NCBI GenBank assembly: GCA_964584825.1
Contig: CAZPBI010000004.1
Span: 1-37,173, forward strand
DNA from: Candidatus Woesearchaeota archaeon
GTDB taxonomy: Archaea > Nanobdellota > Nanobdellia > SCGC-AAA011-G17 > JACPIM01
DNA: 37,173 nt
Direction: 5' to 3'
Shown here: one piece after another, positions 1 through 37,173 of the stretch
Layout: the number at the start of each line of letters is the position of its first letter
Numbering within the stretch: position 1 is the first letter of the stretch
Translations under genes and position numbers: made by a program
The notes under the pieces: generated by a model
Seen by the model: the letters and a program-made list of their open reading frames with translations, nothing else
What the model was told of the DNA's origin: nothing
Database searches by the model: none

Positions 1-170
1 ATAATCAATATTCGCATCAAGCCTTCCGCCCCCGCACCAGAATATCCCGTTGCAATCTTTATCCGAAACATTGAAATCAATCCTGTAATTTCCATCCCTA
101 ACTCCAATAATTTCCCCGCCATTGGGTCTTACTATATTCACATCAACAACTTGGTTTGAAGGAGGGATAG
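1..170 (-). repeat. Edge-truncated copy of the ~145-aa repeat domain shared with 1405..1835 and 4636..5520
   Basis: Reverse translation of nt 180-1 reads YPISIPPSNQVVDVNIVRPNGGEIIGVRDGNYRIDFNVSDKDCNGIFWCGGGRLDANIDY. This is colinear with PSNNPIDANTVKIDGNPDN...DGNLTIDFNVFDLDYNGSFWGIGRFDANIEA in 3233..8368. Confidence 0.7.
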
Positions 171-3018: not shown

Positions 3019-3026
3019 CAAATCCC

Positions 3027-3116
3027 TCACAAAATTCCTAATAGCTTTAAAATAACAAAAATCAAAATTAAAAACATTAAAACAAAAACTAAATGTTCAG
3101 CAATTTTATCTATCAT
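3027..3116 (-). CDS. 29-aa single-pass membrane peptide (below ORF-track cutoff)
   Basis: MIDKIAEHLVFVLMFLILIFVILKLLGIL. The ATG overlaps the end of the 41-aa ORF, and the stop lies 8 nt before ATG 3018. It fits the tight operon spacing, but there is no other support. Confidence 0.3.
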   Translation of the reverse strand: MIDKIAEHLVFVLMFLILIFVILKLLGIL

Positions 3117-8368: not shown

Positions 8369-8682
8369 CTTCTCACCTTAATACATTTTTTAATAGTATA
8401 AAAACTCATACTTGCCCACACTGCTGCAGCTAAAATTCCAGCAATAGATGCTTTAGTTTCATCTGAAGAAATATCATTATGATTACCATAAACTGCAAAT
8501 GCTTTATTAGAATTAATTTCTATACATACTTTTGTTACAGAAGTAGCAAAATATGCATGATAAGATTCATGTACTGCAAGAAATACCATTGTAGAGCTTA
8601 ATGCAGTCATGACTATTAATATCATTATATGAAAATTCAATAACAATCCCCTCTTTTTTCTTCCACAACTGATTCCCCTCAC
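8365..8682 (-). CDS. Small membrane protein with HExxH motif (putative membrane-embedded zinc metallopeptidase)
   Basis: The tracked start is GTG 8682; ATG 8625 (MILIVMTALSS...) is more likely. A TM helix runs straight into LAVHESYHAYF (HExxH), and there is a second hydrophobic helix IAGILAAAVWASMSFY. The stop overlaps the ATG of the giant gene (ATGA). Confidence 0.55.
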   Translation of the reverse strand: MRGISCGRKKRGLLLNFHIMILIVMTALSSTMVFLAVHESYHAYFATSVTKVCIEINSNKAFAVYGNHNDISSDETKASIAGILAAAVWASMSFYTIKKCIKVRR

Positions 8683-11768: not shown

Positions 11769-12644
11769 TTATGCTGTTAGATTTGATAAATTTACATCAC
11801 TAATTTCTACTAATCTTGTTTTTACAAACGCTGCTAAAAATATCACAGCAATTACGAAAGCAACAATTATCAATAGCGATTTGTCCGGAAGTACACTTGT
11901 TGGAGCAAAAAACAAGGCAAGTGTATTATTAACAATATGCGCACTCATCGGAATTATGAAGTCCTTATAGACAACTGCTAATCCTAAAAAGAAAAATCCC
12001 ATCACAAGTTGAGGTATAGCCCCGACGTACGCAGATGTCCCAATGCCCTTTGTATCACTTACGAAGCTAATAAATCCTCCAATGCTATATTCATATGCCT
12101 CCTTTCCTCTTACTGCAAAATGGAAGGCTGCAAAGACTAATGAGACAATTACAATTGAAGTAATTACAGGGTAAGGAACTTTTTTGCTGCGAAGAATTAG
12201 TGAAATTATTATCATTGCGGTAATGACTAAGAATGTCTCAGTTATGGGTTGAATTAATGTGGCAAACAGAACGCTTTCATTTCCTATACTTCCCAATTCT
12301 GCAAATGTTATGCTTCCCATCAAATTATTCAAAGCAGAAATTCCAGACATGAGAAATCCGATGGTGACAATCAAAAGTACGCCCCACACAAAACCTACTG
12401 ATAATCTACTAAATAATTTTTGTTGATTAGGAACATCAAAATATTCCCCTACTTCTTTCTTTTTGCGAGTAGCAAATATGAGAATGGTACTTCCGACAGT
12501 ACCCGCGAGTAGGAGATTCCATAAGGAAGCCTCCCTGGTTGATAATTCTGGACTAACTGTGAAAAGGAAGAGTGAACTGATAGTAACAAGAAATACTAGA
12601 TATAAAATTACATTACTTTCAAGTTTTGGCATTTTAAAAATCAC
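11769..12644 (-). CDS. CPBP/Abi (CAAX-protease-like) family intramembrane protease homologue, divergent
   Basis: Polytopic protein. It has motif 2 F-x3-H (VFAAFHFAVRG) and motif 3 H-x3-N (MSAHIVNNTL). Motif 1 is degenerate (ITETFLV instead of EExxxR). There is no Cys, so it is not an archaeosortase. The tracked start is GTG 12644; ATG 12632 (MPKLES...) behind AGGTG is likelier. Confidence 0.6.
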   Translation of the reverse strand: MIFKMPKLESNVILYLVFLVTISSLFLFTVSPELSTREASLWNLLLAGTVGSTILIFATRKKKEVGEYFDVPNQQKLFSRLSVGFVWGVLLIVTIGFLMSGISALNNLMGSITFAELGSIGNESVLFATLIQPITETFLVITAMIIISLILRSKKVPYPVITSIVIVSLVFAAFHFAVRGKEAYEYSIGGFISFVSDTKGIGTSAYVGAIPQLVMGFFFLGLAVVYKDFIIPMSAHIVNNTLALFFAPTSVLPDKSLLIIVAFVIAVIFLAAFVKTRLVEISDVNLSNLTA

Positions 12645-21934: not shown

Positions 21935-22735
21935 TCACTTATTCATATCAGATGAAATTTGTATAAAAGGTAACACTCCACCTGTAGCAAGTGGCAATTT
22001 CCCATCCCATTTTTGAGTGGCAAGATATGTAATGTATTGTGGGCTTTTGATTAACTGTCTATTAATAATTTCAATTGCATTTGCATCTCCTTCTGCCTTT
22101 GCTGCTGCTTGTAATGCTTCAATTTTTATTCTCTCTAAATCAAATTCACTTTTCAATTTCAATTGTTGAGCAACAACTTTCTGCTCAATTGATTTGTTAA
22201 ACTCTTCCGAAAATTTAAAATCAGTAATGCTAATTGTCTCTACAACAATATTATATTGCTCTAATCTTTCTAAAATTGCTTCATCAATTTTTTGTTTTAC
22301 TAAAGGGCGTTGAGTTATTAATTCCTCTGCTTTGAAATTTGCAGTAGCAGCTTTTACTGTCTCCTGAATTGCTGGGTCAATTATTCTTACTACATAATCC
22401 TTTCCTACTTTTTGATAAATTTCGCTTACTTTATCTGGACGAAGATGATAATTCAAAGCAACAGTGGTATTTACAATTTGCAAATCCGATGATGCTGCTT
22501 CTGCTTTTGCCTCTTCCTTTAAAGTTCTTACACTAAGTATATCCACAGTTTGAGCTATTGGAATAACAAAATGTATTCCTTCGTCTAAAACATTTTTATT
22601 TACTGCACCCCATGTCAATAAGATGCCTCTTTCTCCTGGTCCAACAATTTTAACTGTTAAAGTTAAAAGTAGAATAACCATAACAAACCCAAATATTATT
22701 TTAGCAATTAATGGCATTATATCTTCTTCTTCCAT
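21935..22735 (-). CDS. SPFH/Band-7 protein of the prohibitin type
   Basis: An N-terminal TM, then GERGILLTWGAVNKNVLDEGIHFVIP. NFKAEELITQRPLV matches prohibitin RFDAGELITQRELV, and FSEEFNKSIEQKVVAQQ matches FGKEFTEAVEAKQVAQQ. The 266-aa length is prohibitin-like. Confidence 0.9.
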   Translation of the reverse strand: MEEEDIMPLIAKIIFGFVMVILLLTLTVKIVGPGERGILLTWGAVNKNVLDEGIHFVIPIAQTVDILSVRTLKEEAKAEAASSDLQIVNTTVALNYHLRPDKVSEIYQKVGKDYVVRIIDPAIQETVKAATANFKAEELITQRPLVKQKIDEAILERLEQYNIVVETISITDFKFSEEFNKSIEQKVVAQQLKLKSEFDLERIKIEALQAAAKAEGDANAIEIINRQLIKSPQYITYLATQKWDGKLPLATGGVLPFIQISSDMNK

Positions 22736-25189: not shown

Positions 25190-25191
25190 AT

Positions 25192-25329
25192 TTATTCACC
25201 TGCTTTTTCTTCACAAAATTCTTTCATAAATTTTGTTATTTCATCTTTCATAGAAGTTTGTAATTTTGCACATTTGGATTTAAAATTAGCATGAACTTCA
25301 TCGTCAATTTCTAATAGAATTTTTTTCAT
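25192..25329 (-). CDS. 45-aa ribbon-helix-helix (Arc/MetJ/CopG-like) candidate regulator (below ORF-track cutoff)
   Basis: MKKILLEIDDEVHANFKSKCAKLQTSMKDEITKFMKEFCEEKAGE. The pattern is a beta-strand (ILLEID), helix, turn, helix. It is the first gene of the leftward 25.3-21.3 kb unit. Confidence 0.45.
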   Translation of the reverse strand: MKKILLEIDDEVHANFKSKCAKLQTSMKDEITKFMKEFCEEKAGE

Positions 25330-25387
25330 TTTAACACCTATTTTTTACCTATTTTTTATTTAATTAATATATATATAAATAATGACC

Positions 25388-25424
25388 TTTATAAATCTTT
25401 TTATTTTGGACAGGAGTTTGAAGG
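25388..25424 (-). promoter_or_regulatory. Leftward promoter (TATA 25388-25395, minus sense) with C-rich upstream element
   Basis: The minus-sense reading CCTTCAAACTCCTGTCC-AAAATAAAAAGA-TTTATAAA lies about 60 nt upstream of ATG 25329. It aligns with 20832..20873 and 26040..26082. Confidence 0.5.
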
Positions 25425-25576
25425 TATTTTTGGTTGTTTTGGCAGTGTTTAGGTAAATAACTATAACCTAAATAAGGTTTGACAGGTGTTGTATATTAGT
25501 TAGTGAGTAGGAGTTGTTTAGTTTTTAGAAGATGTAGTATAATATATATTATATATGACTATAGTATTTATTACTG

Positions 25577-25655
25577 ACTTTTTAACTTTTTAAGGTTTTT
25601 TAAAGGTGTTTTGAGAATTTCATAATGAACTTTTTAACTTTTTAACTTTTTAACC
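25577..25655 (+). repeat. Two clusters of 8-bp tandem repeats (AACTTTTT)
   Basis: ACTTTTTAACTTTTTAAGGTTTTTTAAAGG (25577-25606) and AACTTTTTAACTTTTTAACTTTTTAACC (25628-25655). Confidence 0.8.
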
Positions 25656-25746
25656 TTTACGTAATATAAAAATATACCTATAACAGATAAACGTAATGAA
25701 CGATTTATTTATACACATATTTATATATGTACTAGGTTATTTAAAA

Positions 25747-25856
25747 AACCAAGAAACCTAATTCAAGAAGGAGAAATAATCCTTCTTTTGGTGTCTTTAT
25801 TATATGAGAAGGCTTCTTTAGGTTCTTTAATATGTTATCAAACCAAGAAACCTAAT
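25747..25856 (+). repeat. Perfect 16-mer direct repeat AACCAAGAAACCTAAT, 94 bp apart
   Basis: The copies are at 25747-25762 and 25841-25856. The first is followed by the hairpin AGAAGGAgaaataaTCCTTCT. Confidence 0.8.
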
Positions 25857-25931
25857 CTCTATACTTATAAAAGAAGGGAGATTATGTATTGTTTTATTAA
25901 AATCTGGTATAATTATAATTTTTTACTTTTG

Positions 25932-26027
25932 AGGAGTAAAATTATATGATTTTCAGCAAATGGTAAAAGAAGGTAAAATTTACTTTCTTTTAGTAAAAGT
26001 AATATATTTGATAGGAGATTTACTCCT
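25932..26027. repeat. Nested inverted repeats (cruciform-capable)
   Basis: The outer 9-bp repeat is perfect: AGGAGTAAA (25932-25940) / TTTACTCCT (26019-26027). The inner one is AAAAGAAGGTAAA (25965-25977) / TTTACTTTCTTTT (25979-25991), 12 of 13 complementary. Confidence 0.7.
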
Positions 26028-26039
26028 TTTTTCACTTTT

Positions 26040-26088
26040 CAACACCTTCAAAACACCCCGAAATAATAAAAAGGTTTATATATAACAA
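26040..26088 (+). promoter_or_regulatory. Rightward promoter of the replication operon: C-rich upstream element + A-rich spacer + TTTATATATAACAA
   Basis: CAACACCTTCAAAACACCCC-GAAATAATAAAAAGG-TTTATATATAACAA. The TATA 14-mer is identical to 20947..20960. Confidence 0.55.
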
Positions 26089-26151
26089 GGTTTATAATAT
26101 AATAATAATAAATTTGAATGATTAAAATAATAAAAAAAGGAGGAAAAAATA

Positions 26152-26451
26152 ATGGTAGAGGAGGAAAAGGAAAAAACTGAGGAAGTATATGGAAAAGTAG
26201 TTTTTAGGAGGAATATGAGGAATGTTGGTAGCTCCCTTTCAATATACTTCCCAAAAGAGTTACTTGAGTACATAGATGTGAAAGAGGGCGATGAAGTGTT
26301 AGTGTGTGGAGATGTAGGAAAGCACGGACATTTCTTAGGTATTTGGAACCCTATACAACAAGAACGAATGAAAAGAGAAAGAGAGGGCAAGGAAATGAAG
26401 AGTGATATAGAAGAAAACGAGACACCAAAAGAACATGAAATTAATGAATAA
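26152..26451 (+). CDS. AbrB/SpoVT-family DNA-binding protein (cassette 1 head)
   Basis: Strong SD AAAGGAGG. VGSSLSIYFPKELLEYIDVKEGDEV is the AbrB core. The C-terminal HGHFLGIWNPIQQERMKRE is paralogous to WGKFLAVWSTAQQERKRKE of 28376..28606. Confidence 0.7.
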   Translation: MVEEEKEKTEEVYGKVVFRRNMRNVGSSLSIYFPKELLEYIDVKEGDEVLVCGDVGKHGHFLGIWNPIQQERMKREREGKEMKSDIEENETPKEHEINE

Positions 26452-26472
26452 AAGTAAAAGGAGGTGAAAATA

Positions 26473-26655
26473 ATGACAGAAAGTAAAATAATAGAAATAG
26501 AAAAAATTTTTAATGGCTTTATTGTAGATATAGAGCCACAAAAAAAGTATTATTTCAAAAGTCTTGAAGAAGTAAAAAAACATATATCTGATTTTTTAGA
26601 TATAATAGAAGGAAATCATGAAGAACGAAGAAATGATAATTGGACACATACATAA
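26473..26655 (+). CDS. 60-aa hypothetical protein
   Basis: The tracked start 26464 is GTG. ATG 26473 follows AAAGGAGGTGA. I recognised no motif. Confidence 0.55.
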   Translation: MTESKIIEIEKIFNGFIVDIEPQKKYYFKSLEEVKKHISDFLDIIEGNHEERRNDNWTHT

Positions 26656-26672
26656 ATTTTAGGAGAGAAAAA

Positions 26673-28133
26673 ATGTACCGCTATCAGGAATTATTAAAAA
26701 TTTGGATGAAATATACTGATTGTTTTTGTGTAAGTAATGAATGGTTAAAAGAACCTCTATTTTGGGTTCTTAATTCACAATTATTGAGGGCGACATTTAC
26801 TGAAGGAGGAGTTAAACGCCCTTTAAGAGAGCATTTCTTTTGCGTGCAGGGCGCACGAACAGGGAAGGGCAGAGCAATGAGAGCTGCCAAGCATATGTTT
26901 ATGTTTTTTAATAGAGAAGAAAGAGAGAAGAGAGAAAGAATAGCGAAAGAGGCATTAAATAAAATTAATTTAGAGATGATAGGATTAGATGAAAGTAAAA
27001 GTATTGAAAATACAACTACATCTACTACAACTACAAATATTGATTTAAATAGCAATGCCGAGTTTTACAATAAGTTTGATGAAAACACACTTGATGAAGA
27101 AGGTGTGTTTAATGTAAAAGAATTATCAGGTGAAGTAACTCTTGCTGCACTAGTAGGAGGAATTGAGTATGAAAGTCATAAAGGAAAAGTGAGTAAAATC
27201 ATAAAAAAAGGAATGCTTGAAAAATATAACTATCTTTGTTGGGAAGAAGGAGGAGATTTGGTTGCTCCTAGGAATTTATATGGTAATTTAAAATCAACAA
27301 TTCTAAATGCTCTTGAAGATGCTTCTCCTATTACTCGTTCTGCAAGAAAGGATTTAAATTTAGATGGTAGTATGTCTTCTTTTTATAGCCACACAAGTGT
27401 AGCAACGGGAACTGTGTTAATACCTGAAATAACAAAGGACTTCCAAGCAAGTGGAATGTTACAAAGGTTTTTATTTAGTTATAAAAACTTTACTCCTGAT
27501 GAATATGATGATTTGATAAAAAGAATAAATCTTCTTCCTGCTCAGAGAAGTGTAGCAGAAGGAAATGAATACAAACATGAATATCATCATGCATTCTATA
27601 ACAAATACTACGAAAAGGATATTTGTTTAGGTGATAAACATACATTAGAGGAATATAATGCATTCAAGATGAAAGAAGTAGAGCCGTTGAGAAAAAAGTT
27701 TGTAGGTGATAACAAAGTTCAGACAATGATGGGGTTTATAATTCAAAACACACTGCATGACCATAAAATAGCAAGTATGATTGCTTCTCTTGAAAATGAA
27801 AAAATGGTTAGTTTGGATATGTATAAGGAAGCGAATAAATACACCTATAGTAGTTTGGAAAGTATAGCAAAATTAATGGAAAGGGATTTTACTTATGCCA
27901 AATCAGAGGGTGAGATTAAAAGGCAAGATTCAATTTTGAATATAATTAAAAATAATCAACCAATAAACCAATCTAACTTACTTGAAAAGTTAAGAAACAT
28001 TCAATCAGAAGGGAAATGGGATTTTAGGTATAATTCATCATTGAAATTATTAGAAGAGATGGAAAAAGCAAGAATAATAAAAACAACAAAAGGAGGAAAA
28101 GGTAATGTTAAATTCTATTCCTTTTCAAGATAA
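26673..28133 (+). CDS. AAA+-like ATPase with C-terminal winged helix; candidate replication initiator/helicase (distant MCM/Orc-Cdc6-like)
   Basis: The tracked start 26640 is TTG. ATG 26673 follows AGGAGAG. Deviant P-loop CVQGARTGKGRA; acidic Walker-B-like YLCWEEGGD; GMLQRFLFSY resembles the MCM arginine-finger context LLSRFDL. The C-terminal LLEKLRN...LKLLEEMEKARIIKTTKGGKGNVKFY looks like a wHTH. The assignment is tentative. Confidence 0.4.
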   Translation: MYRYQELLKIWMKYTDCFCVSNEWLKEPLFWVLNSQLLRATFTEGGVKRPLREHFFCVQGARTGKGRAMRAAKHMFMFFNREEREKRERIAKEALNKINLEMIGLDESKSIENTTTSTTTTNIDLNSNAEFYNKFDENTLDEEGVFNVKELSGEVTLAALVGGIEYESHKGKVSKIIKKGMLEKYNYLCWEEGGDLVAPRNLYGNLKSTILNALEDASPITRSARKDLNLDGSMSSFYSHTSVATGTVLIPEITKDFQASGMLQRFLFSYKNFTPDEYDDLIKRINLLPAQRSVAEGNEYKHEYHHAFYNKYYEKDICLGDKHTLEEYNAFKMKEVEPLRKKFVGDNKVQTMMGFIIQNTLHDHKIASMIASLENEKMVSLDMYKEANKYTYSSLESIAKLMERDFTYAKSEGEIKRQDSILNIIKNNQPINQSNLLEKLRNIQSEGKWDFRYNSSLKLLEEMEKARIIKTTKGGKGNVKFYSFSR

Positions 28134-28375
28134 AAGTAAAGAGAATACAATACAAAATACTACTACTCATCAAAAGATTGAATAGAAAATGAAAAATTAA
28201 AAAAATAAAGATAAAAAAGGAAAAAAAATAGTGATGAATTATATGTTTTTTTCAAGATAAGGATTAATTGATTAATTATAAAAAATTAAGTATACCTATA
28301 TATTTAAATATAACCTCCTATATAATATATTAAAGGTTATAAGAGATTTATAAAATTGTATAAAGGAATGATAAG

Positions 28376-28606
28376 ATGGCGGAAGAACCAATTAGTAAAG
28401 AAGTATACAAGAAAAACTTATACGACACTGGAGGCTCACTTGCTGTAGTAATTCCAAAAAACTTTTTAGATGAACTGGAGTTAGAGTTGGGAAAAGAGAC
28501 AGAAGTAATGATGTGTATAGATGAGGGAAAGTGGGGAAAGTTTTTAGCAGTATGGAGTACCGCACAGCAAGAGAGAAAGAGAAAAGAAATGAAAGAAGAG
28601 AAATGA
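28376..28606 (+). CDS. AbrB/SpoVT-family DNA-binding protein (cassette 2 head)
   Basis: TGGSLAVVIPKNFLDELELELGKETEV is the AbrB core. TTTATAAAA lies about 27 nt upstream of the ATG, so the transcript may be near-leaderless. Confidence 0.7.
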   Translation: MAEEPISKEVYKKNLYDTGGSLAVVIPKNFLDELELELGKETEVMMCIDEGKWGKFLAVWSTAQQERKRKEMKEEK

Positions 28607-28630
28607 AAAGATTTGTGAGGAGGTAAGAAA

Positions 28631-29704
28631 ATGGTAAGTAAGGAAGAAGTATTCAAATATATTATAGATGGGGGTCTATCTACACCTGAGAAATTAGAAG
28701 AAGCATATAAAGTAGTTTGGAATGATTCATTAATAGTACATCCTGGAATGAGTGAAGAGCAACGCACAGCTTATATATTGACAATAATATTAGGAAGAGT
28801 AAAAGGTGTTTTTGGTTTGGGAGGATTTTTTATTGGTTATGGTGACCAGTTTGATGTTAATGTAAAAGCAAGAAAACGGGCACTACAACTTAATCACTAT
28901 TCTACAGAAGGTTCTACAGTAGGAAAACTCATATACAAAGATATGCCAACCAATCAAAATTTTAGGGAAGGAGAAATTATTCCTACAGAGGCAGAAAGTT
29001 TATCAAGATTGTGCTATGGAGTGTTTTGGGAAAAGAATAAGGAAGGAAAAATTCCTGATATTTCCTTATGGAAGCCGTTTAGTTTGTGGTTAAGAGAAAC
29101 CAACGATGTGTTTCCTTTATTTACTGTGTTGGAATTTAGAGCAACAGGAAAAATAACAGGAACAACACCTACTCTTAATTCAGATGGAATTTCCTACAAA
29201 ATTGTAAAAGACGAGAAGATAAACTTTCCACAAATAGCAAAACTATTTTTGAAAAACAATATCACAACACTGAAAGATTTGCCTAACTTCCAGAAAGTTG
29301 TTGGTTTTCCAATAGAGATAATTAATGCACAAGTAGTTAGGTTTACAAAAACCTCGCCTAGTAAAAAGGCAGATGTAGTAGAGTTGAGAAGTTATAGTAG
29401 AAATATTGAAGAGCTGGATACAGAAACACCAAACTATACATTATTTATCAATAAACAACTTGATTTGGATTTGCATGAAGGAGATATAGTATGGTGTGTT
29501 GTGGATAAATTTACAGGAAGAGATGGTAGTATTGGAGTAAGGGGTTATGGGTTTTGGATAGAGGAAAGTAATGCTCCTATTTCTCCTCCTCAACCTCTTA
29601 CTATTGAGAATATATCTACAAATTCTCCTATAATAGAAGGAACAACTACAGTAATTAGTGAAGAAAAAACAGAAGGCGAAAATAAGGAGGAAACAGAATG
29701 GTAG
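28631..29704 (+). CDS. 357-aa protein, possible ssDNA-binding protein (OB-like C-terminal half + acidic tail ending in Trp)
   Basis: SD GAGGAGGT. The segment AQVVRFTKTS...VVELRS...LHEGDIVWCVVDKFTGRDGSIGVRGYGFWI looks like an OB-fold. The acidic C-terminal tail EEKTEGENKEETEW is typical of SSB tails. The position matches that of SSB in phage replication modules. Confidence 0.3.
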   Translation: MVSKEEVFKYIIDGGLSTPEKLEEAYKVVWNDSLIVHPGMSEEQRTAYILTIILGRVKGVFGLGGFFIGYGDQFDVNVKARKRALQLNHYSTEGSTVGKLIYKDMPTNQNFREGEIIPTEAESLSRLCYGVFWEKNKEGKIPDISLWKPFSLWLRETNDVFPLFTVLEFRATGKITGTTPTLNSDGISYKIVKDEKINFPQIAKLFLKNNITTLKDLPNFQKVVGFPIEIINAQVVRFTKTSPSKKADVVELRSYSRNIEELDTETPNYTLFINKQLDLDLHEGDIVWCVVDKFTGRDGSIGVRGYGFWIEESNAPISPPQPLTIENISTNSPIIEGTTTVISEEKTEGENKEETEW

Positions 29705-30639
29705 AAAATGAAAAAGCAGATAATTTATTGTTTATGCCTTCACAACCACAACAAACTCAGATTGTTGGAGAGAAAAAAGAAATAACAAAAACTCCTGTAA
29801 AAGAATCAACATCAGAGGAATTGATAAAATTTACAGATGAGGATATTAGGAAATATTTATTTGATGGAGAAACAGATATGGAAAAGAAATTATGTACATT
29901 AATTTATGGGGTGGATGGGACTGGGAAATCGGGAATTGTTCTAAATTATATTGCCAAAAATTTGAAAGATGAGGAAAAGTCTGTCATAATTGATTTAGAT
30001 AGCGGTTGTCTTCCATTAATAGCAAGTTATTATCCAGAAAAAGCAAAACAAATGATTGTAAGAAATCCAATAAGTATGACTTTTTTAGAAAATGAAGTAG
30101 TTTTGGACTATAAACTTACTCTTTCAAGAATTAAGGCGATTGTTGATTTTGTTAAACGTTATCATAAGAAAGAGAAGATAAAAGCACTTACAATTGATGG
30201 AATTAGTACACTCCTAAAGTATGCAGAAAGACAAATGAGACTTGAAAAGCATATTGCACCCGATGGGGGAGTTGTAAACAGATTTTGGATGGTTCGTAAC
30301 CAAATGTTTGAAGAGATTTTAGAAGAGGCAAAAAGTATAGGTATTAATGTATTTTTTATAAGCCAAGAGGATTTTATTCCTATTCCTCAAGGAGTAGTTG
30401 ATGATTCAGGTAATCCTCAAAAATTAAGTAGCATCAAAAGTAAAGCTAACGCAATGGCTCATCAAAAAATAAGATGTTTTAGAAAAGATGATATTGATAA
30501 AGTAGAATATATAGCAATTATCGACAAGAGCAAATATAATTCTCTCTGCGACGGGAAAAGTATTGTTTTTTGTACAGTTGATAAAAAAGCAAAAACTGTT
30601 ACATTTGACACAAGTGAAATTTTCAAGGAGTTAATTTAG
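29698..30639 (+). CDS. RecA-superfamily ATPase of the Sak4/AAA_24 type (recombination/annealing helper)
   Basis: Walker A is LIYGVDGTGKSG and Walker B is ALTIDGISTL. The later FWMVRNQMFEEILEEAKSIGINVFFISQE follows the AAA_24 pattern. The ATG overlaps the previous stop. Confidence 0.55.
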   Translation: MVENEKADNLLFMPSQPQQTQIVGEKKEITKTPVKESTSEELIKFTDEDIRKYLFDGETDMEKKLCTLIYGVDGTGKSGIVLNYIAKNLKDEEKSVIIDLDSGCLPLIASYYPEKAKQMIVRNPISMTFLENEVVLDYKLTLSRIKAIVDFVKRYHKKEKIKALTIDGISTLLKYAERQMRLEKHIAPDGGVVNRFWMVRNQMFEEILEEAKSIGINVFFISQEDFIPIPQGVVDDSGNPQKLSSIKSKANAMAHQKIRCFRKDDIDKVEYIAIIDKSKYNSLCDGKSIVFCTVDKKAKTVTFDTSEIFKELI

Positions 30640-30661
30640 AAAATAAAAGGAGTTGATATAA

Positions 30662-31399
30662 ATGACAAGGTTTGAAGTAAATGCAGAAACTTTGAGTAGC
30701 TTTTTCAGTAAAATAAACCTAGATGAATTTAACATTAAGGTGTGTAAGGAAGGTTGGTTCGTAGAGGGAATCGACAGAGAGAATTTAAGCGCTGTTTTTG
30801 GAATATTGAAAAAGAATGCTTTTTTCACATACCCTACAATTGAAGAAGAAAAATTAATAGGAATTGAAAGTAAGGAAAAGTTTTTAAAATTCCTTGAAAG
30901 ATTTGATGATAAAATATCAATAGAAGTAAAGGAGAAAGTGTTATATATAATTTCACTAAATCGCCAACTGGAGATGATACTTCCACATGAAAGTATTTTG
31001 GTCAAAACCAAGCAACCTAATCTAACATATCAAGGAAATTTTACAATAAAATCAGAGGTGTTTAAACAAGCGGTAAAGAATAATCAATTACTTGAATCGA
31101 GTAAATACATACTACAAATAACAGAAGGAGAATTATCAATTGTCTCCACAAACAATGTTGATAAGATTATTGAAATAGCGAAAATAAACTACCCAAATTG
31201 TAAGGGAGTATTTGGAGATAAAATTAGAGAGGTATTTACTCCATTAAGCGGAGATGTTAAAATTTCACTTTCTACAAACTATCCCCTGCTAATAGAGTAC
31301 GAAGATAAAGTAAGTGAGTTGAAATATGTGATTGCGCCAATTGTAGAGGAGGAAAATTATGGAAAAGATAATGCCGTGGGTGGAGAAGTACCGGCCTAA
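30662..31399 (+). CDS. pcna: PCNA-type sliding clamp
   Basis: The 245-aa length is typical of PCNA. The N-terminus is MTRFEVNAETLSSFFSKINLDEFNIKVCKEGWFVEGID. The C-terminal ELKYVIAPIVEEE matches the PCNA signature (human HLKYYLAPKIEDEE). Confidence 0.85.
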   Translation: MTRFEVNAETLSSFFSKINLDEFNIKVCKEGWFVEGIDRENLSAVFGILKKNAFFTYPTIEEEKLIGIESKEKFLKFLERFDDKISIEVKEKVLYIISLNRQLEMILPHESILVKTKQPNLTYQGNFTIKSEVFKQAVKNNQLLESSKYILQITEGELSIVSTNNVDKIIEIAKINYPNCKGVFGDKIREVFTPLSGDVKISLSTNYPLLIEYEDKVSELKYVIAPIVEEENYGKDNAVGGEVPA

Positions 31400-32267
31400 A
31401 GAATTTGAGGAGGTAATAAACCTTCCAAAGTATATTCCCACAATTGTAGAAAAAAATATGCCTCATTTATTGTTAGTGGGAAGCCCTGGAACTGGGAAGA
31501 CGACAGTAGCAAGGATTATTATAAATAAATTAGGTGCGGAATATTTGGAATTAAATGCCTCTGATGAAAGAGGGATTGATGTAGTAAGGAATACAATAAA
31601 ACATTTCGCCTCTACACAATCATTTAACAATAAAATAAAAATAGTATTTTTAGACGAGTGCGATGGGATGACGCAAGAAGCAATGGAAAGCTTAAGAAAT
31701 ACAATTGAAAAATATAGTGGAGTTTGTAGGTTCATAGGCAGTGCAAATAATTTGAATAAAATTACTTCTGCTCTAAAAAGTAGATTTTCTGTTTTACAAT
31801 TTACTAATCCTCCTGAAGAAGATATAAGAAAAAGATTAGAGTATATTTTAAAACAAGAAGGTGCAATTTGTGACGATGAAATTTTGAAAAGAATAATTAA
31901 GCATTATTTTCCTGACATCCGTCAAATGATTAACGTGTTACAAATAAACGAAGATAAAGGAAAAATAGTTGAAAATAGAAATATTTTAAGTGAAAACATA
32001 ACACAAACTATTTACAATTATTTAAAAGCAAAAGCATTTCCAGCAATTAGGGAACGAATTGTTAAGAACGGAATTAATGTAAGTGAATTACTTGAGGGAT
32101 TAGAGGAAAGAATTTTTAATGATAATAGTATAACAACAGAAAAAAAGAAAAAATTGCTAATGTTTTTGTGTGAATGCAATCGTAATATATCAAGTGTTGC
32201 TATCCCAAGATTAGAATTTGAAGATTTTACATTAAAATTTATAAGTGAGTTAGGAGAAACAAAATGA
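31359..32267 (+). CDS. rfcS: Replication factor C small subunit (clamp loader AAA+)
   Basis: PWVEKYRPKEFEEVI (RFC box II), LLVGSPGTGKTT (Walker A), VFLDECDGMT (Walker B), ALKSRF (the SRC-motif position). It overlaps the PCNA gene by 41 nt. SD GAGGAGG. Confidence 0.9.
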   Translation: MEKIMPWVEKYRPKEFEEVINLPKYIPTIVEKNMPHLLLVGSPGTGKTTVARIIINKLGAEYLELNASDERGIDVVRNTIKHFASTQSFNNKIKIVFLDECDGMTQEAMESLRNTIEKYSGVCRFIGSANNLNKITSALKSRFSVLQFTNPPEEDIRKRLEYILKQEGAICDDEILKRIIKHYFPDIRQMINVLQINEDKGKIVENRNILSENITQTIYNYLKAKAFPAIRERIVKNGINVSELLEGLEERIFNDNSITTEKKKKLLMFLCECNRNISSVAIPRLEFEDFTLKFISELGETK

Positions 32268-32635
32268 CAGAAGATAAAATAAAAACCTTTGATGCATTGA
32301 GGGAATTATATGTTAATCCTAATCCCTCTATACTTCCTTTTGTAGAAAAAAATATTAATCCATATTTCTTTACTTTATATACGAGTTTTGATTATAATAA
32401 TAAACATAATACAAAACTTTTCAATAAATATTTGAATATTGATAAGAGTTTGTTTTGGAAATTGGTATTCCTCCACATAAAAAGGTGTGAGGTGTTTTAT
32501 TGGAATAAGGATTATATTAAAATGAAAAAAATAGAGGAAGATGAATTTAAGAATAAAGTAAAGAAGATATTTAATTGGAGTGAAAAAGAATGGAATTGTA
32601 ATAAGGCAGTTGTTATGAAAAAAATGAAAGAGTAA
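32264..32635 (+). CDS. 123-aa hypothetical protein translationally coupled to RFC-S (possible clamp-loader accessory subunit)
   Basis: ATGA overlap with the rfcS stop. Aromatic-rich and Lys-rich, with no motif recognised except a PIP-like EKNINPYF. Confidence 0.6.
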   Translation: MTEDKIKTFDALRELYVNPNPSILPFVEKNINPYFFTLYTSFDYNNKHNTKLFNKYLNIDKSLFWKLVFLHIKRCEVFYWNKDYIKMKKIEEDEFKNKVKKIFNWSEKEWNCNKAVVMKKMKE

Positions 32636-32753: not shown

Positions 32754-33422
32754 ATGTTTGTAACGGAAATTTTCTGCTCAACGGAAGGAGAGGGAATAAG
32801 AGTAGGAACTCCTGAGGTGTTTATAAGGTTTGCTGGATGTTCAATTGGTTGCCGTGCGTGCGATACACCTTACGCCTTAAATAAAGAAAATGGAAAAGAA
32901 ATGAGTGTAGAAGAAATTGTTGAGGAAATTGAAAAATATAAAATAAAAAATGTTGTATTGACAGGAGGTAGCCCCTTAGAACAAGAATTAGAGGAATTGA
33001 GGGAATTGATATATAAATTGAAAAGATATTATTATTATGTTGTGCTTGAAGAAAGTGGTCAAAAGTATGATAGCGAAATTTTTGATATTGTGGATTTTCT
33101 TTCTTTGGATATTAAAACCCCTAGTAGTGGAGTAAAAATTAATGAGGAAACTTTCTATTACATAATAAGTATGTTTAAGAAAAATAAATATCAATTTAAA
33201 ATGGTTGTTAGTGATGATAAAGATTGGGAGTTTGTAAAAAAGATTGTTAATAGATATGGAGATAAAAATTTTGTAGTGACCCCTTGTTGGAATATTAACC
33301 AAGAAAATGTAAATGTGGAATTAATAGAAAAAATATTGAAGGATTTGCAAGAAAATACATTACCTATCAGAATTATCGTACAGCAACATAAGTTGTTGTA
33401 CAAACATAAGAGAGGTGTATAA
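32754..33422 (+). CDS. queE: 7-carboxy-7-deazaguanine synthase (radical SAM)
   Basis: The N-terminal EIFCSTEGEGIRVGTPEVFIRFAGCSIGCRACDT carries the QueE-type C-x3-C-x2-C cluster motif and the preceding QGEG-like box. Confidence 0.85.
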   Translation: MFVTEIFCSTEGEGIRVGTPEVFIRFAGCSIGCRACDTPYALNKENGKEMSVEEIVEEIEKYKIKNVVLTGGSPLEQELEELRELIYKLKRYYYYVVLEESGQKYDSEIFDIVDFLSLDIKTPSSGVKINEETFYYIISMFKKNKYQFKMVVSDDKDWEFVKKIVNRYGDKNFVVTPCWNINQENVNVELIEKILKDLQENTLPIRIIVQQHKLLYKHKRGV

Positions 33423-33423
33423 G

Positions 33424-33600
33424 ATGATTTTATGTGAAGAATGTGGAACTTCAAACTGGGAAATAGTAATAGAAGATTTAGAAAAAAAAGGTGAAGAAGG
33501 TAAATTTTTTCTTTTACAATGTATAGAATGTAAAAGAACAGTAGCATTAGAAGGAAATCCACAAGATATTTTAAATGCTAAAAAGACGGAATTTATATGA
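33424..33600 (+). CDS. 58-aa zinc-ribbon protein
   Basis: The tracked start 33415 is GTG. ATG 33424 follows AGAGGTG. The Cys pairs are CEEC ... CIEC. Confidence 0.6.
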   Translation: MILCEECGTSNWEIVIEDLEKKGEEGKFFLLQCIECKRTVALEGNPQDILNAKKTEFI

Positions 33601-33611
33601 GGTGAAAGAAA

Positions 33612-33815
33612 ATGGAAGATATTGTAGAGAAAAAAGAAGGAAAAATAAGTTATGCAATTGAAAAAGGAGTAATCGTTCAATTAAATAAAACAACAAAAGG
33701 AACTTACTCATATGTGTTGAGAATTGGAGGTATTCCTAATTTTGCAGAGGCTTTAGACCAATTATTCGAGGCGAAAAGAAGATTAGAAGGGTTAATAAAG
33801 GAGGAAGTAAAATGA
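33612..33815 (+). CDS. 67-aa hypothetical protein
   Basis: SD GAGGTGA. The stop overlaps the queC ATG (ATGA). No motif recognised. Confidence 0.6.
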   Translation: MEDIVEKKEGKISYAIEKGVIVQLNKTTKGTYSYVLRIGGIPNFAEALDQLFEAKRRLEGLIKEEVK

Positions 33816-34552
33816 GTAAAAAAGCAGTATGTATTGTCAGCGGAGGGATGGACAGTGTAACTCTTCTACATAAAGCAGTTAAAGAATTAGGAAAAGAAAA
33901 TGTTAGTGTATTGAATTTCCATTATGGAAGCAAACATAATAATAGGGAAAGGCCTTTTGCAAAATTAAACGCAAAACTTTTAGGTGTTAAATATACAGAA
34001 ATAAATTTGGATTATATCAATAAATTATGGAAATCTGATTTATTGAAAAGTGGTGGAAAAATTCCAGAGGGGCATTATGCGCAAGATAATATGAAATTAA
34101 CTGTAGTGCCGTTTAGGAATGGAATAATGTTAGCAAATGCTGTAGGATTTGCAGAAAGTATAGGATTTAATGAAGTATGGTTAGGCAGCCATAAAGGAGA
34201 TAGGGCTCAGTATAAAGATTGTTCTAAGGAATTTACAAAAGCAATGAGTAAAGCAGCAGAGATAGGAACTGATAAAGGAATAAAAATTCTTTCTCCTTTT
34301 AATAATATAATGAAATCAGATATTGTAAAAATAGGAGTTGAATTAAAAGTTCCTTATGAAAAAACATTTAGTTGCTATGTTGGAGAAAAAAGGCCATGCT
34401 TGCGTTGTGGAACTGATGTTGAAAGAACTGAAGCATTTTATAAAAATAACATAAAAGACCCTCTTCTTACAATTAAGGAATGGGAAATAGCAGTTAGTTA
34501 TATGAAGAAAACATTAAAAGAATTTGATAAAAAACAAAAGGTAAAAATATGA
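33812..34552 (+). CDS. queC: 7-cyano-7-deazaguanine (preQ0) synthase
   Basis: PP-loop AVCIVSGGMDSVTLL. The C-terminal Cys cluster is SCYVGEKRPCLRCG. The length and order match QueC. Confidence 0.85.
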   Translation: MSKKAVCIVSGGMDSVTLLHKAVKELGKENVSVLNFHYGSKHNNRERPFAKLNAKLLGVKYTEINLDYINKLWKSDLLKSGGKIPEGHYAQDNMKLTVVPFRNGIMLANAVGFAESIGFNEVWLGSHKGDRAQYKDCSKEFTKAMSKAAEIGTDKGIKILSPFNNIMKSDIVKIGVELKVPYEKTFSCYVGEKRPCLRCGTDVERTEAFYKNNIKDPLLTIKEWEIAVSYMKKTLKEFDKKQKVKI

Positions 34553-34653
34553 AAAAGTGTTTTGTTTGTAGTGGAAGTAAAAAGACAAAAACATCTGTAA
34601 TGAGAAAGTATATTTGCAAACCGTGTTTTGAAAAGATTAAAGTGAAAAAATGA
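34549..34653 (+). CDS. 34-aa zinc-ribbon mini-protein (below ORF-track cutoff)
   Basis: MKKCFVCSGSKKTKTSVMRKYICKPCFEKIKVKK (CxxC ... CxxC). ATGA overlaps with queC upstream and the PRTase gene downstream. Confidence 0.5.
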   Translation: MKKCFVCSGSKKTKTSVMRKYICKPCFEKIKVKK

Positions 34654-35051
34654 ATAAAATGAGTAAGAAATTCATAACCTGGGAGGAAATGGACAGAGTT
34701 GTAGAGGATTTGGCAGAGAAGATTAGAAAAACAAAACATAAGTATAGTGCAATATACTTTGTTCCAAGAGGAGGAGCAATTCCTGCTGTAATGCTTTCAC
34801 ATAAATTAAATCTTCCATTTACACACTTACCAATAGATGAGAATATTTTAATTGTGGATGAAATTGTTGATGGAGGAAAGACATTATTATTCCATAAAAA
34901 GATATGTAGCAAATCCTCTAAATTTGCAAGTTGTTATGTGAAGGAATGTACTATTGAAAAACCAGACTTTTTTGTTGAGGAAATTCCAAAAAATATATGG
35001 TTGGTATTTCCATGGGAAACTGAAAAAACTTCGAGGAGAGATAACAAATGA
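34650..35051 (+). CDS. Xanthine-guanine phosphoribosyltransferase (Gpt)-like type-I PRTase
   Basis: ITWEEM, FVPRGGAIPAVMLSHKLN, the PRPP loop ILIVDEIVDGGKT and NIWLVFPWE are colinear with E. coli Gpt as I remember it (VTWDML, AVSRGGLVPGALLAREL, IVIDDLVDTGGT, DTWIEQPWD). Confidence 0.7.
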   Translation: MNKMSKKFITWEEMDRVVEDLAEKIRKTKHKYSAIYFVPRGGAIPAVMLSHKLNLPFTHLPIDENILIVDEIVDGGKTLLFHKKICSKSSKFASCYVKECTIEKPDFFVEEIPKNIWLVFPWETEKTSRRDNK

Positions 35052-35443
35052 AAGGAGAATATATTTTAAGTAAAAAGTTTGAAATTGCTGCATCACATAA
35101 GTTAGAAGATAAAAAACTAACATATGAAGAAAATAGAAAAATATTTAATCACTGTAATGATTTGCATGGCCACAGTTTTATTATAGAAATTTTGTTAAAA
35201 GGAAATAATTTAAACAATGGAATGCTGATAAATTTTAGCAAGTTAAAAGAATTTTTTGAAGAAAAAATAAAACCTTTTATAGACCATAAACATTTGAATG
35301 ATATACTTGTTTTACCTACATCAGAAAATTTAGCAAAGTTTATCTATACAATTTTTAAAGGAGAAAAAACCTTTTCAAAATTACTTTATGCAATTAGAGT
35401 ATATGAAAGTTTAAATTCATATATAGAGTATAAGGAGGAATAA
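35048..35443 (+). CDS. queD: 6-carboxy-5,6,7,8-tetrahydropterin synthase
   Basis: CNDLHGHSFIIEI (the Cys-x3-HGH catalytic/zinc motif of QueD/PTPS). The ~130-aa size fits. ATGA overlap upstream. Confidence 0.8.
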   Translation: MKGEYILSKKFEIAASHKLEDKKLTYEENRKIFNHCNDLHGHSFIIEILLKGNNLNNGMLINFSKLKEFFEEKIKPFIDHKHLNDILVLPTSENLAKFIYTIFKGEKTFSKLLYAIRVYESLNSYIEYKEE

Positions 35444-35446
35444 ATA

Positions 35447-35986
35447 ATGGAGGAAGAAATAAAAAAGATTTTAGAAGGAATAGGAGAAAATCCAGATAGA
35501 GAAGGATTAAAAGATACTCCAAAAAGAGTTGTAAAAAGTTTTGAAAAATTATATGGAGGATATAAAGATGATTATAAAAAACATTTAACAACTTTTGATG
35601 CTGAAGGTTATGATGGAGTGATTTTATTGAAAGACATTGAATTATATTCTACTTGCGAGCATCATATGCAAATTTTTGAGGGCAAGTGCCATATAGCTTA
35701 TGTCCCAAATGGAAAGATTATAGGAGTAAGTAAGTTGATTAGGATTATGGAAATATTTGCGAGGAGACTACAAATCCAAGAGCGTCTAACAAAACAAATT
35801 GCAGATGCCTTACAGGAAATTCTCAATCCTCTTGGATTGATGGTATATATTGAAGCACAACACTTCTGTATAAGAAGTAGAGGTGTAGAAAAACAAAATA
35901 GTGTAATGGTTACTTCTGTTCTAAAAGGAAAATTCTTAACGGAACCAGAAATGGAAATGAAAATTCTTCAAATGATTAAAAAATGA
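35447..35986 (+). CDS. folE: GTP cyclohydrolase I
   Basis: YSTCEHHMQIFEGKCHIAYVPNGKIIGVSKLIRIMEIFARRLQIQERLTKQIADAL matches the GCH-I core almost motif for motif. Confidence 0.9.
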   Translation: MEEEIKKILEGIGENPDREGLKDTPKRVVKSFEKLYGGYKDDYKKHLTTFDAEGYDGVILLKDIELYSTCEHHMQIFEGKCHIAYVPNGKIIGVSKLIRIMEIFARRLQIQERLTKQIADALQEILNPLGLMVYIEAQHFCIRSRGVEKQNSVMVTSVLKGKFLTEPEMEMKILQMIKK

Positions 35987-36002
35987 AAGGAGGTGTGTAA
36001 AA

Positions 36003-36134
36003 ATGGCGTTTGGTAAATATACAATTTCCTTCAAAGGATGCACAGATAGTATGGAAGATGTTTTCGGCAGTGAAGGCATTCCTCCTTCACAAATGATAAA
36101 GAGAATATGGGAATATGTAAAAGAGAAAAAATTG
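36003..36134 (+). CDS. 43-aa ORF with SWIB-like helix motif (below ORF-track cutoff)
   Basis: AGGAGGT SD. In MAFGKYTISFKGCTDSMEDVFGSEGIPPSQMIKRIWEYVKRKN, the segment V-x-G-x-x-x-x-P-x-x-x-x-x-K-x-[IL]-W-x-Y-[IV]-K resembles the first half of SWIB/MDM2 domains. This is weak. Confidence 0.3.
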
Positions 36135-36161
36135 AGCAGTAAGTAAAAGGAGGAGATAAAA

Positions 36162-36677
36162 ATGGAAGAAAAACCAAAAGAAGAAAATAGAGGAATAGAA
36201 GGAAGTCAGTGGAGTTATGGAAGTAAAATGGAAAGTTTTACAGAGGAGGAATTGAAAGAAAGGATAAAAAAAGCAATGGAGTATGAAATTCCAAATAAAA
36301 TTCGTCCTATTCCTTTTATGGGAAATGAAAGAGAATTAATCCGATATAGATACTCAGAATTAATAGCTCGTTGTCCGGTGACTGGGATTAGCGACATGTA
36401 CGACATACTGATTGACTTTATTCCCTCCAATACAATCCCAGAGTTAAAAAGTCTAAAAATTTATTTCTGGGCATATCAGCAACTTCCAATCTCTCACGAA
36501 CATTTAGCAGCAAAAGTCTATAACGACTTTACAAAAACAATAAATCCTAAAGAATGTAAACTAACATTACTTGTCAGTGAGAGAGGAGAATTAAGAACAT
36601 CAGTTGTGTTAGGAAAAATATCTCTACAAAACGGAGAAGGTTTTGATAGAGAATATATAAAACCTTATCAATGGTAA
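36162..36677 (+). CDS. queF: NADPH-dependent 7-cyano-7-deazaguanine reductase (preQ0 to preQ1), unimodular type
   Basis: The catalytic Cys context is LIARCPVTGISDMYD. QueF motif ELKSLKIYF, then SHEH. It is 171 aa with a charged N-terminal extension of about 40 aa. Confidence 0.8.
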   Translation: MEEKPKEENRGIEGSQWSYGSKMESFTEEELKERIKKAMEYEIPNKIRPIPFMGNERELIRYRYSELIARCPVTGISDMYDILIDFIPSNTIPELKSLKIYFWAYQQLPISHEHLAAKVYNDFTKTINPKECKLTLLVSERGELRTSVVLGKISLQNGEGFDREYIKPYQW

Positions 36678-36727
36678 GAAGAAAATATAGTATTAGGTAA
36701 ATGGGTTAGTGGTAAGAGGTTATTTAT

Positions 36728-37173
36728 ATGTATAGCCTAAAGGGAAGTTTAGAAAAGCAATTGGGTTATATATCCCATATTACACTAACTCCTTTAGATG
36801 TAGAGTTTAGTTTTAATGGAAAAGTGGAGAATTTTAAAATAACTCCTCCTTCTAAACTCTATATCTCTCCTAATTTTTTTAGAAGTGGTAAGTGTGAAAG
36901 ATGCGGAAAGTGTTGTAAAGTGGGGTATTGGTGTATATTTGGAGAAAAAGATATAGAAAAGGCTAAAAGTTTAGGTAATGAGGATTTAATAAAGAGAGTT
37001 AAAAAGTTAGATATAAAAATTAATAATATTCCTCATACTCTTTATGTTTTTAATATGGTGAATAATATTTGTCCATACTTGAAAATGGATGATGGTCTTT
37101 CTACTTGCCTTATACATAATTCCAAACCTCTACATTGTGAAATGCCACCAATAAAGTTGAAGAAAGGTAAGAA
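36728..37173 (+). CDS. YkgJ-type CxxCxxCC cysteine-cluster (zinc/iron-chelating) protein, partial (runs off the right edge)
   Basis: ATG 36728; the frame is open to nt 37173. It has CERCGKCCKVGYWC and a later CPYLKMDDGLSTCLIHNSKPLHCEMPP, which is the typical second half of this family. Confidence 0.6.
   Translation, partial: MYSLKGSLEKQLGYISHITLTPLDVEFSFNGKVENFKITPPSKLYISPNFFRSGKCERCGKCCKVGYWCIFGEKDIEKAKSLGNEDLIKRVKKLDIKINNIPHTLYVFNMVNNICPYLKMDDGLSTCLIHNSKPLHCEMPPIKLKKGK

Follow-up and report, generated by a model that had tools for sequence, protein, structure and literature searches.

Predicted 7-deazaguanine DNA-hypermodification genes follow the replication genes of a 37-kb contig assigned to Candidatus Woesearchaeota

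A preQ1 pathway, a DpdM-family gene and a phosphoribosyltransferase

Contig CAZPBI010000004.1 (GenBank assembly GCA_964584825.1, Candidatus Woesearchaeota archaeon) was analysed over its entire length of 37,173 bp, referred to here as the window, and the end genes on both sides of it are truncated. From position 32,754 to the last base it contains 11 same-strand open reading frames (ORFs), separated by small gaps or joined by 4-nt overlaps and mostly preceded by GGAGG-type ribosome-binding sites (Table 1). These genes, which are predicted to direct the synthesis of the 7-deazaguanine base preQ1 and its use in the modification of DNA, are the subject of this report. The first-pass annotation counted 12 ORFs here, one too many, and recognised five enzymes, QueE, QueC, QueD, FolE and a unimodular QueF, all of which profile searches confirm with their positions and their location on the + strand. 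Its reasoning that these convert GTP to preQ1, and that the product serves DNA hypermodification, is also supported by the results below. Loci used for comparison are cited by L numbers.

Table 1. Features of the window, those of the terminal gene cluster first
Feature	Position	Strand	Remarks
QueE	32754..33422	+	Radical_SAM/Fer4_12 match; CxxxCxxC motif present as CSIGCRAC
Mini zinc ribbon, two CxxC pairs	33415..33600	+	61 aa from GTG; 58 aa from ATG at 33424
67-aa ORF	33612..33815	+	GAGGTGA ribosome-binding site; 4-nt overlap with QueC; no family match
QueC, preQ0 synthase	33812..34552	+	PF06508 at 1.4e-52; SGGMDS motif
34-aa double-CxxC mini ORF	34549..34653	+	4-nt overlaps with QueC and with the phosphoribosyltransferase
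Gpt-like type I phosphoribosyltransferase, 133 aa, short form	34650..35051	+	PF00156 3.6e-07; NF006613 xanthine phosphoribosyltransferase 2.6e-19
QueD, 6-carboxytetrahydropterin synthase	35048..35443	+	PTPS 6.6e-24; TIGR03367 4.9e-20
FolE, GTP cyclohydrolase I	35447..35986	+	PF01227 2.9e-69; TIGR00063 221 bits, above cut-off
SWIB-like ORF, 47 aa	36003..36146	+	PF02201 1.5e-05, 25.1 bits (cut-off 25)
Unimodular NADPH-type QueF (preQ0 to preQ1)	36162..36677	+	PF14489 5.7e-14; TIGR03139 1e-19
DpdM-family (YkgJ/CxxCxxCC) protein, N-terminal 148 aa	36728..37173	+	PF03692 1.7e-06; cut by contig end
Minus-strand block	1-25189	-	includes giant ORFs
ORF >1032 aa	1-3096	-	giant ORF; truncated, runs off window start
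1711-aa ORF	3233-8368	-	giant ORF of the minus-strand block
AT-rich intergenic gap, ~1 kb	25190-26150		between divergent blocks; GC ~0.25, GC skew changes sign
Replication operon	26152-32635	+	terminal genes are the PCNA-like clamp and RFC-like clamp loader
AbrB/SpoVT-like small proteins, two paralogues	26152-26451 and 28376-28606		one with weak MazE_antitoxin match
PCNA-like sliding clamp	30662..31399	+	weak PCNA_C match; 35% identity to L008 counterpart
RFC small-subunit-like clamp loader	31359..32267	+	AAA plus RFC1/Gp44 lid domains
123-aa ORF between RFC and QueE	32264..32635	+	no Pfam match

The genes for FolE, QueD, QueE and QueC all lie inside 3.3 kb on one strand. Four NCBIfam QueE models match QueE, with E-values from 5e-38 to 6e-15 and every score below the curated cut-off, and its homologues are the QueE proteins of L008, L010, L014 and L016. 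The score of QueC against TIGR00364 (162.9 bits) is above the cut-off of 150.3. QueD has the motif CxxxHGH in the form CNDLHGH (within CNDLHGHSF), a signature that distinguishes QueD from its decarboxylase paralogue DpdL, in which the sequence is LxxxHRHxF (PMC10516641), and a reading of this gene as DpdL was rejected by that motif. The best solved structure for QueF is that of Bacillus subtilis QueF (4F8B), with which the catalytic Cys and Asp, the E-x-KSLK-x-Y motif and the HE pair all align, and Cys71, Asp78, ELKSLKIY and HEH are invariant across the alignment of the clade to which this QueF belongs. The protein has the QueF motif E(S/L)K(S/A)hK(L/Y)(Y/F/W), but with Ile rather than Leu or Tyr at the seventh position. 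A QueF-L identity was rejected, given the NADPH-binding QueF motif and a score of 23 bits to the QueF-L structure 5JYX versus 34 bits to B. subtilis QueF. Since the catalytic residues align and the QueF-L score is the lower, QueF is predicted to be a true nitrile reductase and the pathway to end at preQ1. Judged from their sequences, FolE, QueD, QueE, QueC and QueF together constitute a complete route from GTP to the free base preQ1.

Immediately after QueF is a gene interrupted by the end of the contig. DpdM, a YkgJ/DUF3109-like protein with a CxxxCxxCC motif, converts dPreQ1 to mdPreQ1, the nucleoside of 7-(methylamino)methyl-7-deazaguanine, an activity validated in vivo in Escherichia coli for Vibrio phage VH7D and predicted for CEPG_00054 of Cellulophaga phage phiSM (PMC10516641). 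The terminal ORF was linked to DpdM through the literature, targeted pairwise comparison and an exhaustive HMMER search. Pairwise BLASTP with the phiSM DpdM gave an E-value of 1e-07 and 30% identity over 113 aa, and both proteins match PF03692 over the same region. The HMMER search returned 106 homologues, mostly of 220-260 aa and matching from their N-termini, and these include several close relatives of the phiSM DpdM (best 3e-36). In the family alignment C56, C59, C63, C115 and C127 are invariant and C62 and C137 near-invariant, and the terminal ORF retains all seven conserved Cys of its visible part with the spacing CxxCxxCC, as in many family members. Aligned by hhalign to the validated VH7D DpdM, the profile of the terminal-ORF family gave a probability of 99.4% (E 8.8e-22). 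The protein had no match in a word-indexed homology search, in which its closest homologue, P0029, retrieved only itself, and phage records searched by tblastn with the terminal ORF gave no match either. The closest DpdM homologue, 40% identical, is encoded in L102, where QueF and DpdM genes are again adjacent, as they are in phiSM (QueF-DpdM-DpdA) and in Pseudanabaena phage Pan1, and the IMG/VR loci L103, L114 and L116 have the order DpdM-QueF-DpdA. In Vibrio phages VH7D and phi-Grn1, DpdM is not near QueF but ~34 kb away. On this profile evidence the trailing gene is a member of the DpdM family and, given that membership and the QueF-DpdM adjacency, the module is predicted to yield mdPreQ1 against a background of dPreQ1.

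Another gene of the cluster encodes a Gpt-like phosphoribosyltransferase (PRTase), for which the closest solved structures are the Pyrococcus horikoshii purine PRTase (1VDM), Sulfolobus solfataricus GpT and E. coli XGPRT. R40-G41-G42, D70, D74, G76, T78, W117 and W122 are invariant in an alignment of viral homologues, and the loop that binds phosphoribosyl pyrophosphate (PRPP; VDEIVDGGKT), the RGG loop and the stacking W117 are invariant across the viral homologues and E. coli Gpt. D74 is the Asp of the PRPP loop, a residue that contacts the purine N7 in 6-oxopurine PRTases. The closest homologues, both 38% identical, are within the 7-deazaguanine clusters of Flavobacterium phage immuto, which has fdPreQ1 and DpdA3, and of the Logan phage contig L010, and others are in the clusters of Synechococcus phage BUCT-ZZ01, with a DpdA2-like gene, and Brevundimonas phage MaInes, beside FolE.

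In IMG/VR, PRTase homologues are present at 384 or more loci. The neighbourhoods of the best 80 of these (L018-L097) were counted, many of which are possibly close kin so that the counts are not independent, and Que genes are located within 10 kb in 65 of the 80 and a recognisable DpdA in 44. Where at least 6 kb is available on both sides (n=29), these values are 27/29 and 22/29, respectively. In 45 of the 80 loci the known gene nearest to the PRTase is that for FolE, and in L095 (IMGVR_UViG_3300009715_000259) the two are fused in frame as a single ORF of 315 aa (9974-10921), with the PRTase at residues 10-141 and FolE at residues 138-315, a Rosetta-stone link. The PRTase in IMG/VR mostly accompanies DpdA3. 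The clusters that have it vary in their end product, with or without QueC, QueF or DpdN, and so in the C7 substituent, and guanine would be the substrate that all of them have in common. Judging by these neighbourhoods, the PRTase recurs as an accessory in viral 7-deazaguanine clusters and is not a stray passenger. Its role, we infer, is to recycle the guanine that base exchange sets free, because its closest relatives are 6-oxopurine salvage enzymes, it is located beside FolE and once fused to it, its PRPP-loop Asp is invariant and guanine is common to clusters with different end products. The literature searched contains no paper that links a Gpt-like PRTase to the viral 7-deazaguanine pathway. 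As a widespread partner of viral Que/DpdA clusters, it offers a general lead beyond this element.

Within 5 kb of the PRTase, on the same strand, are also a MazG/PRA-PH-like nucleoside triphosphate (NTP) pyrophosphohydrolase (40 of the 80 loci), PolB (37), unannotated families of 117 aa (32) and 241 aa (25) and a thioredoxin (22).

The predicted transglycosylase gene and the proposed mechanism

The signature protein of viral 7-deazaguanine DNA-modification systems is a DpdA-family DNA transglycosylase, and the first-pass annotation listed the lack of a recognisable TGT (tRNA-guanine transglycosylase) or DpdA protein as an unusual feature of the window. The lack is confirmed. Pfam scans of 44 window ORFs, the full set of listed coding-strand ORFs of 80 aa or longer apart from 8365-8682 and the truncated 1-3096, identified no TGT, DpdA or DUF6610 gene in the 37 kb, and tblastn of the window with four DpdA types (L008-type, L014-type, DpdA3 and DpdA4) gave a best E-value of 0.29. 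It is not, however, unusual, as truncation of the contig rather than biology is likely the best explanation, because relatives carry a TGT-family gene beside QueF. The most informative relative is L008, a 25-kb Logan contig (SRR21418560) with a QueF 60% identical to that of the window. Its replication genes follow the same order as in the window, with a homologue of the 357-aa protein, an AAA_24 ATPase, a PCNA homologue and an RFC (47% identical), and then come QueD, QueC, FolE, QueF, a 397-aa protein, QueE and PolB, followed by a Cas4-like nuclease, a PriL-like protein and a helicase. The 397-aa protein, encoded directly after QueF, has a weak TGT match (PF01702, 5e-04) and an ArcTGT match at the zinc site, and is homologous to a 367-aa protein of L014 that is encoded between QueF and PolB; DSGGY, CxCPVC and LHNL motifs are common to both. 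A scan of IMG/VR with the QueF clade alignment identified 14 loci, and in 13 of these a DpdA gene, nine of phiSM type, three of L008 type and one DpdA3, is directly beside QueF. In the remaining locus the contig stops ~1 kb past QueF.

The phiSM DpdA (CEPG_00053) itself has no Pfam match, and the same is true of its homologues of ~300-324 aa, which are encoded at 8610-9584 in L010 and beside QueF in L103-L106, L109, L111 and L114-L116. This type is the commonest QueF neighbour in the clade, and standard annotation would miss such transglycosylases. The 497-aa and 357-aa proteins of the window's replication module were considered as hidden transglycosylases and rejected, as L008 has counterparts, clear for the 357-aa protein and weak for the 497-aa protein (E 1.7e-05 over 66 aa), plus a separate TGT-like gene.

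Attempts to extend the sequence past nt 37173 were negative. Exact-protein look-ups with QueF, FolE and QueC returned nothing but Logan contigs, 0.9-1.6 kb long and ending within the window; the read sets SRR12113383, SRR12113420 and SRR12113430 carry genes identical to those of the window. The contig is absent from the three collections named next, and no sequence beyond that position was obtained by scanning IMG/VR, JGI metagenomes and GTDB genomes with QueF or the terminal ORF singly, or with the DpdM alignments A3 and A4.

We consider it probable, at about 70%, that the segment represents the upstream portion of a viral module for DNA hypermodification with a 7-deazaguanine, which operates as follows. 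Transcription of the module would run on from the replication operon, and FolE, QueD, QueE, QueC and QueF would convert GTP to preQ1. A DpdA-type DNA-guanine transglycosylase, presumably encoded just past the contig end, would then exchange guanine in the element DNA for preQ1, DpdM would N-methylate part of the inserted preQ1 and the resulting DNA would resist host restriction. With PRPP, the PRTase would convert the guanine released in each exchange to GMP, which would refill the GTP pool used by FolE and at the same time remove a competing TGT substrate. Such recycling, if it occurs, closes a metabolic loop and would matter most for highly modified genomes. The apparent anomaly of a full pathway with no inserter thus becomes a specific prediction, namely the rest of dpdM and, no more than one or two genes further on, a TGT-family gene, with dPreQ1/mdPreQ1 in the DNA.

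Several points weigh against this reading. The PRTase lacks ~25-29 residues, equivalent to positions 53-81 of 1VDM in the alignment. This segment is the flexible catalytic loop in type I PRTases, and normal activity is thus not assured; the short form (~128-140 aa) predominates among the best 80 IMG/VR homologues, which fits the same deletion. The guanine-salvage role is one deduced from sequence and neighbourhood, and the MazG-like NTP pyrophosphohydrolase at 40 of the 80 PRTase loci fits a nucleotide-level pathway as well. The case for a transglycosylase of the element's own is based on synteny in relatives of 35-60% identity. The visible part of the DpdM-family protein ends before the eighth conserved Cys and the GRNW motif, which would be located beyond the contig end, and its metal motif is CxxCxxCC as opposed to CxxxCxxCC in the phiSM DpdM. 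The sole DpdM tested is the distant VH7D protein, and known mdPreQ1 levels are very low, with two Vibrio phages at 0.01% of G (PMC10516641).

The PRTase could alternatively act within the pathway itself, joining preQ1 (or preQ0 or 7-carboxy-7-deazaguanine, CDG) to PRPP, as ToyH and TubE do in the biosynthesis of toyocamycin and tubercidin, with the deazaguanine nucleotide then reduced, phosphorylated and incorporated into DNA by a polymerase. No DNA transglycosylase would be needed, as would suit a 37-kb window with no DpdA and a PRTase embedded among the pathway genes, and CDG is an established substrate of PRTases from deazapurine antibiotic clusters (PMC6112128; bioRxiv 10.64898/2026.04.15.718813). 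The PRTase is, moreover, found mostly with DpdA3, the subfamily tied to complete guanine replacement (PMC10516641), and often near a MazG-like pyrophosphohydrolase and PolB, an arrangement that resembles nucleotide-pool pathways; the missing loop segment might, speculatively, open the pocket. We nevertheless regard this route as unlikely, as a recognisable DpdA is present in 22 of the 29 PRTase loci flanked by 6 kb or more on each side and beside QueF in all relatives of the QueF clade with enough flank, and no kinase, reductase or dGTP-clearing enzyme was seen in the window. The proposed substrate of DpdM is preQ1 that is already part of DNA (PMC10516641), the PRTase adjoins FolE, to which it is fused once, and not the last enzyme of the pathway, and this one PRTase family occurs with clusters of differing C7 substituents. 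Similarly improbable is a loop-less PRTase that ribosylates the deazaguanine base in a pre-replicative route alongside or instead of DpdA, with no guanine salvage. If true, this would account both for the total replacement of guanine that some phages show and for the absence of a transglycosylase from view here, and it would call for a revision of the current view that such modifications are all post-replicative.

A role in auxiliary metabolism directed to tRNA, in which preQ1 would increase queuosine in host tRNA through the host TGT while the DNA of the element remains unmodified, is in keeping with a preQ1 pathway that is the canonical bacterial route to the queuosine precursor, with a bacterial-type QueF whose clade has a cellular bacterial member (L117, 49% identical) and with no linked transglycosylase visible in the window. 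This is very unlikely given the adjacent gene of the DpdM family, which is tied to DNA modification (PMC10516641), the coupling of the same genes to DpdA and PolB in relatives and the lack of tRNA genes in the window. The least probable reading is that the element has no transglycosylase of its own and borrows a host DpdA or TGT, or has a non-homologous inserter among its unannotated genes. DpdA3 and DpdA4 did go unrecognised for years (PMC10516641), and the large 497-aa and 357-aa proteins have no family assignment, but their weak and clear counterparts, respectively, in L008 are accompanied by a separate TGT-like gene and so are not substitutes for it, and truncation of the contig is the simpler explanation.

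Interleaved small ORFs, replication genes and the identity of the element

Small ORFs are interleaved with the pathway genes. The 58-aa form of the mini zinc ribbon is the form called on the Logan contig L004, and the protein is a candidate conserved partner of the pathway. A homologue with 45% identity over 42 aa is present in L008 (7954-8260), just upstream of QueD and adjoining a DUF6011 ORF. The 34-aa double-CxxC ORF has a single sub-threshold match in Pfam, to Gin. The SWIB-like ORF, for which 43 aa had been reported, is 47 aa in length; it is preceded by a strong AAGGAGGTG ribosome-binding site, covers ~31 of the 74 positions of the SWIB/MDM2 profile and is identical to a gene called on the Logan contigs L001 and L003, and no counterpart is present in any of the related clusters compared. 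Likewise, the 123-aa ORF between RFC and QueE has no homologue in any related locus compared.

The cluster is preceded by an operon of replication genes. Against solved structures, the sliding clamp matches only PCNAs at E <0.25, and the best E-values (5e-05) are to eukaryotic PCNAs. The clamp loader scores 157 bits to Pyrococcus furiosus RFCS versus 103 bits to T4 gp44, and has 35-41% identity to the gp44 proteins of T4-like phages. Each of the two AbrB/SpoVT-like paralogues is encoded directly upstream of one of the large unannotated genes of the replication module (497 aa and 357 aa).

The gap between the divergent blocks is a candidate origin and/or divergent promoter region. Within it there are direct repeats, ACTTTTTAACTTTTTAA three times and a 22-nt AACCAAGAAACCTAAT pair spaced 94 nt, and a tandem AAGGTTTATA pair at 26071/26087 that resembles B recognition element (BRE)/TATA boxes. 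Sigma-70 promoters and intrinsic terminators occur only at chance level and BRE/TATA-like boxes are only marginally enriched. The element is a possible but unproven archaeal virus; QueF is of bacterial type and its clade, as noted, extends to a cellular bacterial protein. If the host is archaeal, DpdM-type modification would be extended to archaeal viruses.

The element is a putative virus. No PHROG family was matched by the six structural-region and three replication-region proteins scanned, no Pfam capsid, portal or terminase match was found among the minus-strand proteins (1-25189) and no tRNA genes were found in the window. A circular or complete genome was rejected, as the window has no terminal repeat and a stop arises immediately where its ends are joined. 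The genes presumed to be structural include those for an SPFH/Band-7 protein (21935-22735, 2.7e-35) and a CAAX/Rce1-like membrane protease (11769-12644, 2e-06), which would be unusual cargo for a tailed virus.

Comparison with known systems

Several features that the first-pass annotation considered unusual have precedents. The location of a 7-deazaguanine cluster on a clamp/clamp-loader/polymerase operon is one, as the same adjacency is found in halovirus HVTV-1, phiSM, L008 and L112/L113. The presence of QueF beside an archaeal-type replisome is another, as it is known from HVTV-1, which has an RFC-type loader and dPreQ1 in its DNA (PMC10516641). The interleaved ORFs do exist and, of those left unassigned, the PRTase and the CxxCxxCC protein now have assignments, but mini-ORFs are present also in HVTV-1 and phiSM.

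HVTV-1, an RFC/PolB virus in whose DNA preQ1 replaces 30% of G (PMC10516641), resembles the element in having FolE, QueD, QueE, QueC and a unimodular QueF in one operon stretch, with many small ORFs interleaved with the pathway genes. Sequence identity is, however, low (QueF 28%, RFC 30%), and HVTV-1 has a DpdA4 (DUF6610) gene beside FolE and neither DpdM nor the PRTase, whereas no DUF6610 gene is present in the window. In the Flavobacterium phage vB_FspM_immuto, the PRTase is encoded between QueE and FolE, and QueF is present so that preQ1 is made. This is, in contrast, a bacteriophage of ~160 kb whose QueF is bimodular and whose DpdA is DpdA3; it encodes the formyltransferase DpdN where the window has DpdM, and also an NTP pyrophosphohydrolase and a polymerase of family A. 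Among uncultured relatives from IMG/VR, L110 has the PRTase and QueF together with a DpdA of L008 type and PolB, and L112/L113 have PCNA and RFC homologues together with the cluster. L008, L110, L112 and L113 have no recognisable DpdM and, unlike the window, all have a TGT-like gene; L008 and L112/L113 also differ in the absence of the PRTase.

PF00156 PRTases among FolE/QueD/QueE-type genes are also exemplified by ToyH and TubE, but these ribosylate the deazapurine itself and belong to actinomycete clusters without genes for insertion into nucleic acid. The viral PRTase is, among solved structures, closest to 6-oxopurine salvage PRTases and co-occurs with DpdA.

The cluster of phiSM has the order FolE, two unknown genes, QueF, DpdM, DpdA, ParB-like, QueC, QueD, QueE, small ORF, clamp. 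It differs in that DpdA is right after DpdM, where the contig here ends inside DpdM, in having ParB-like and 202-aa unknown genes and in having no Gpt-like PRTase among the homology-search matches; the clamp loader of the window is, in addition, RFC-like. Common to both are FolE, QueD, QueE, QueC and a unimodular QueF, a homologous DpdM-family gene directly after QueF, ORFs of ~60 aa and a cluster that abuts the gene for a polymerase processivity factor. The element is thus most likely a new case of the known viral 7-deazaguanine systems, of the mdPreQ1 type, with its transglycosylase gene off the contig.

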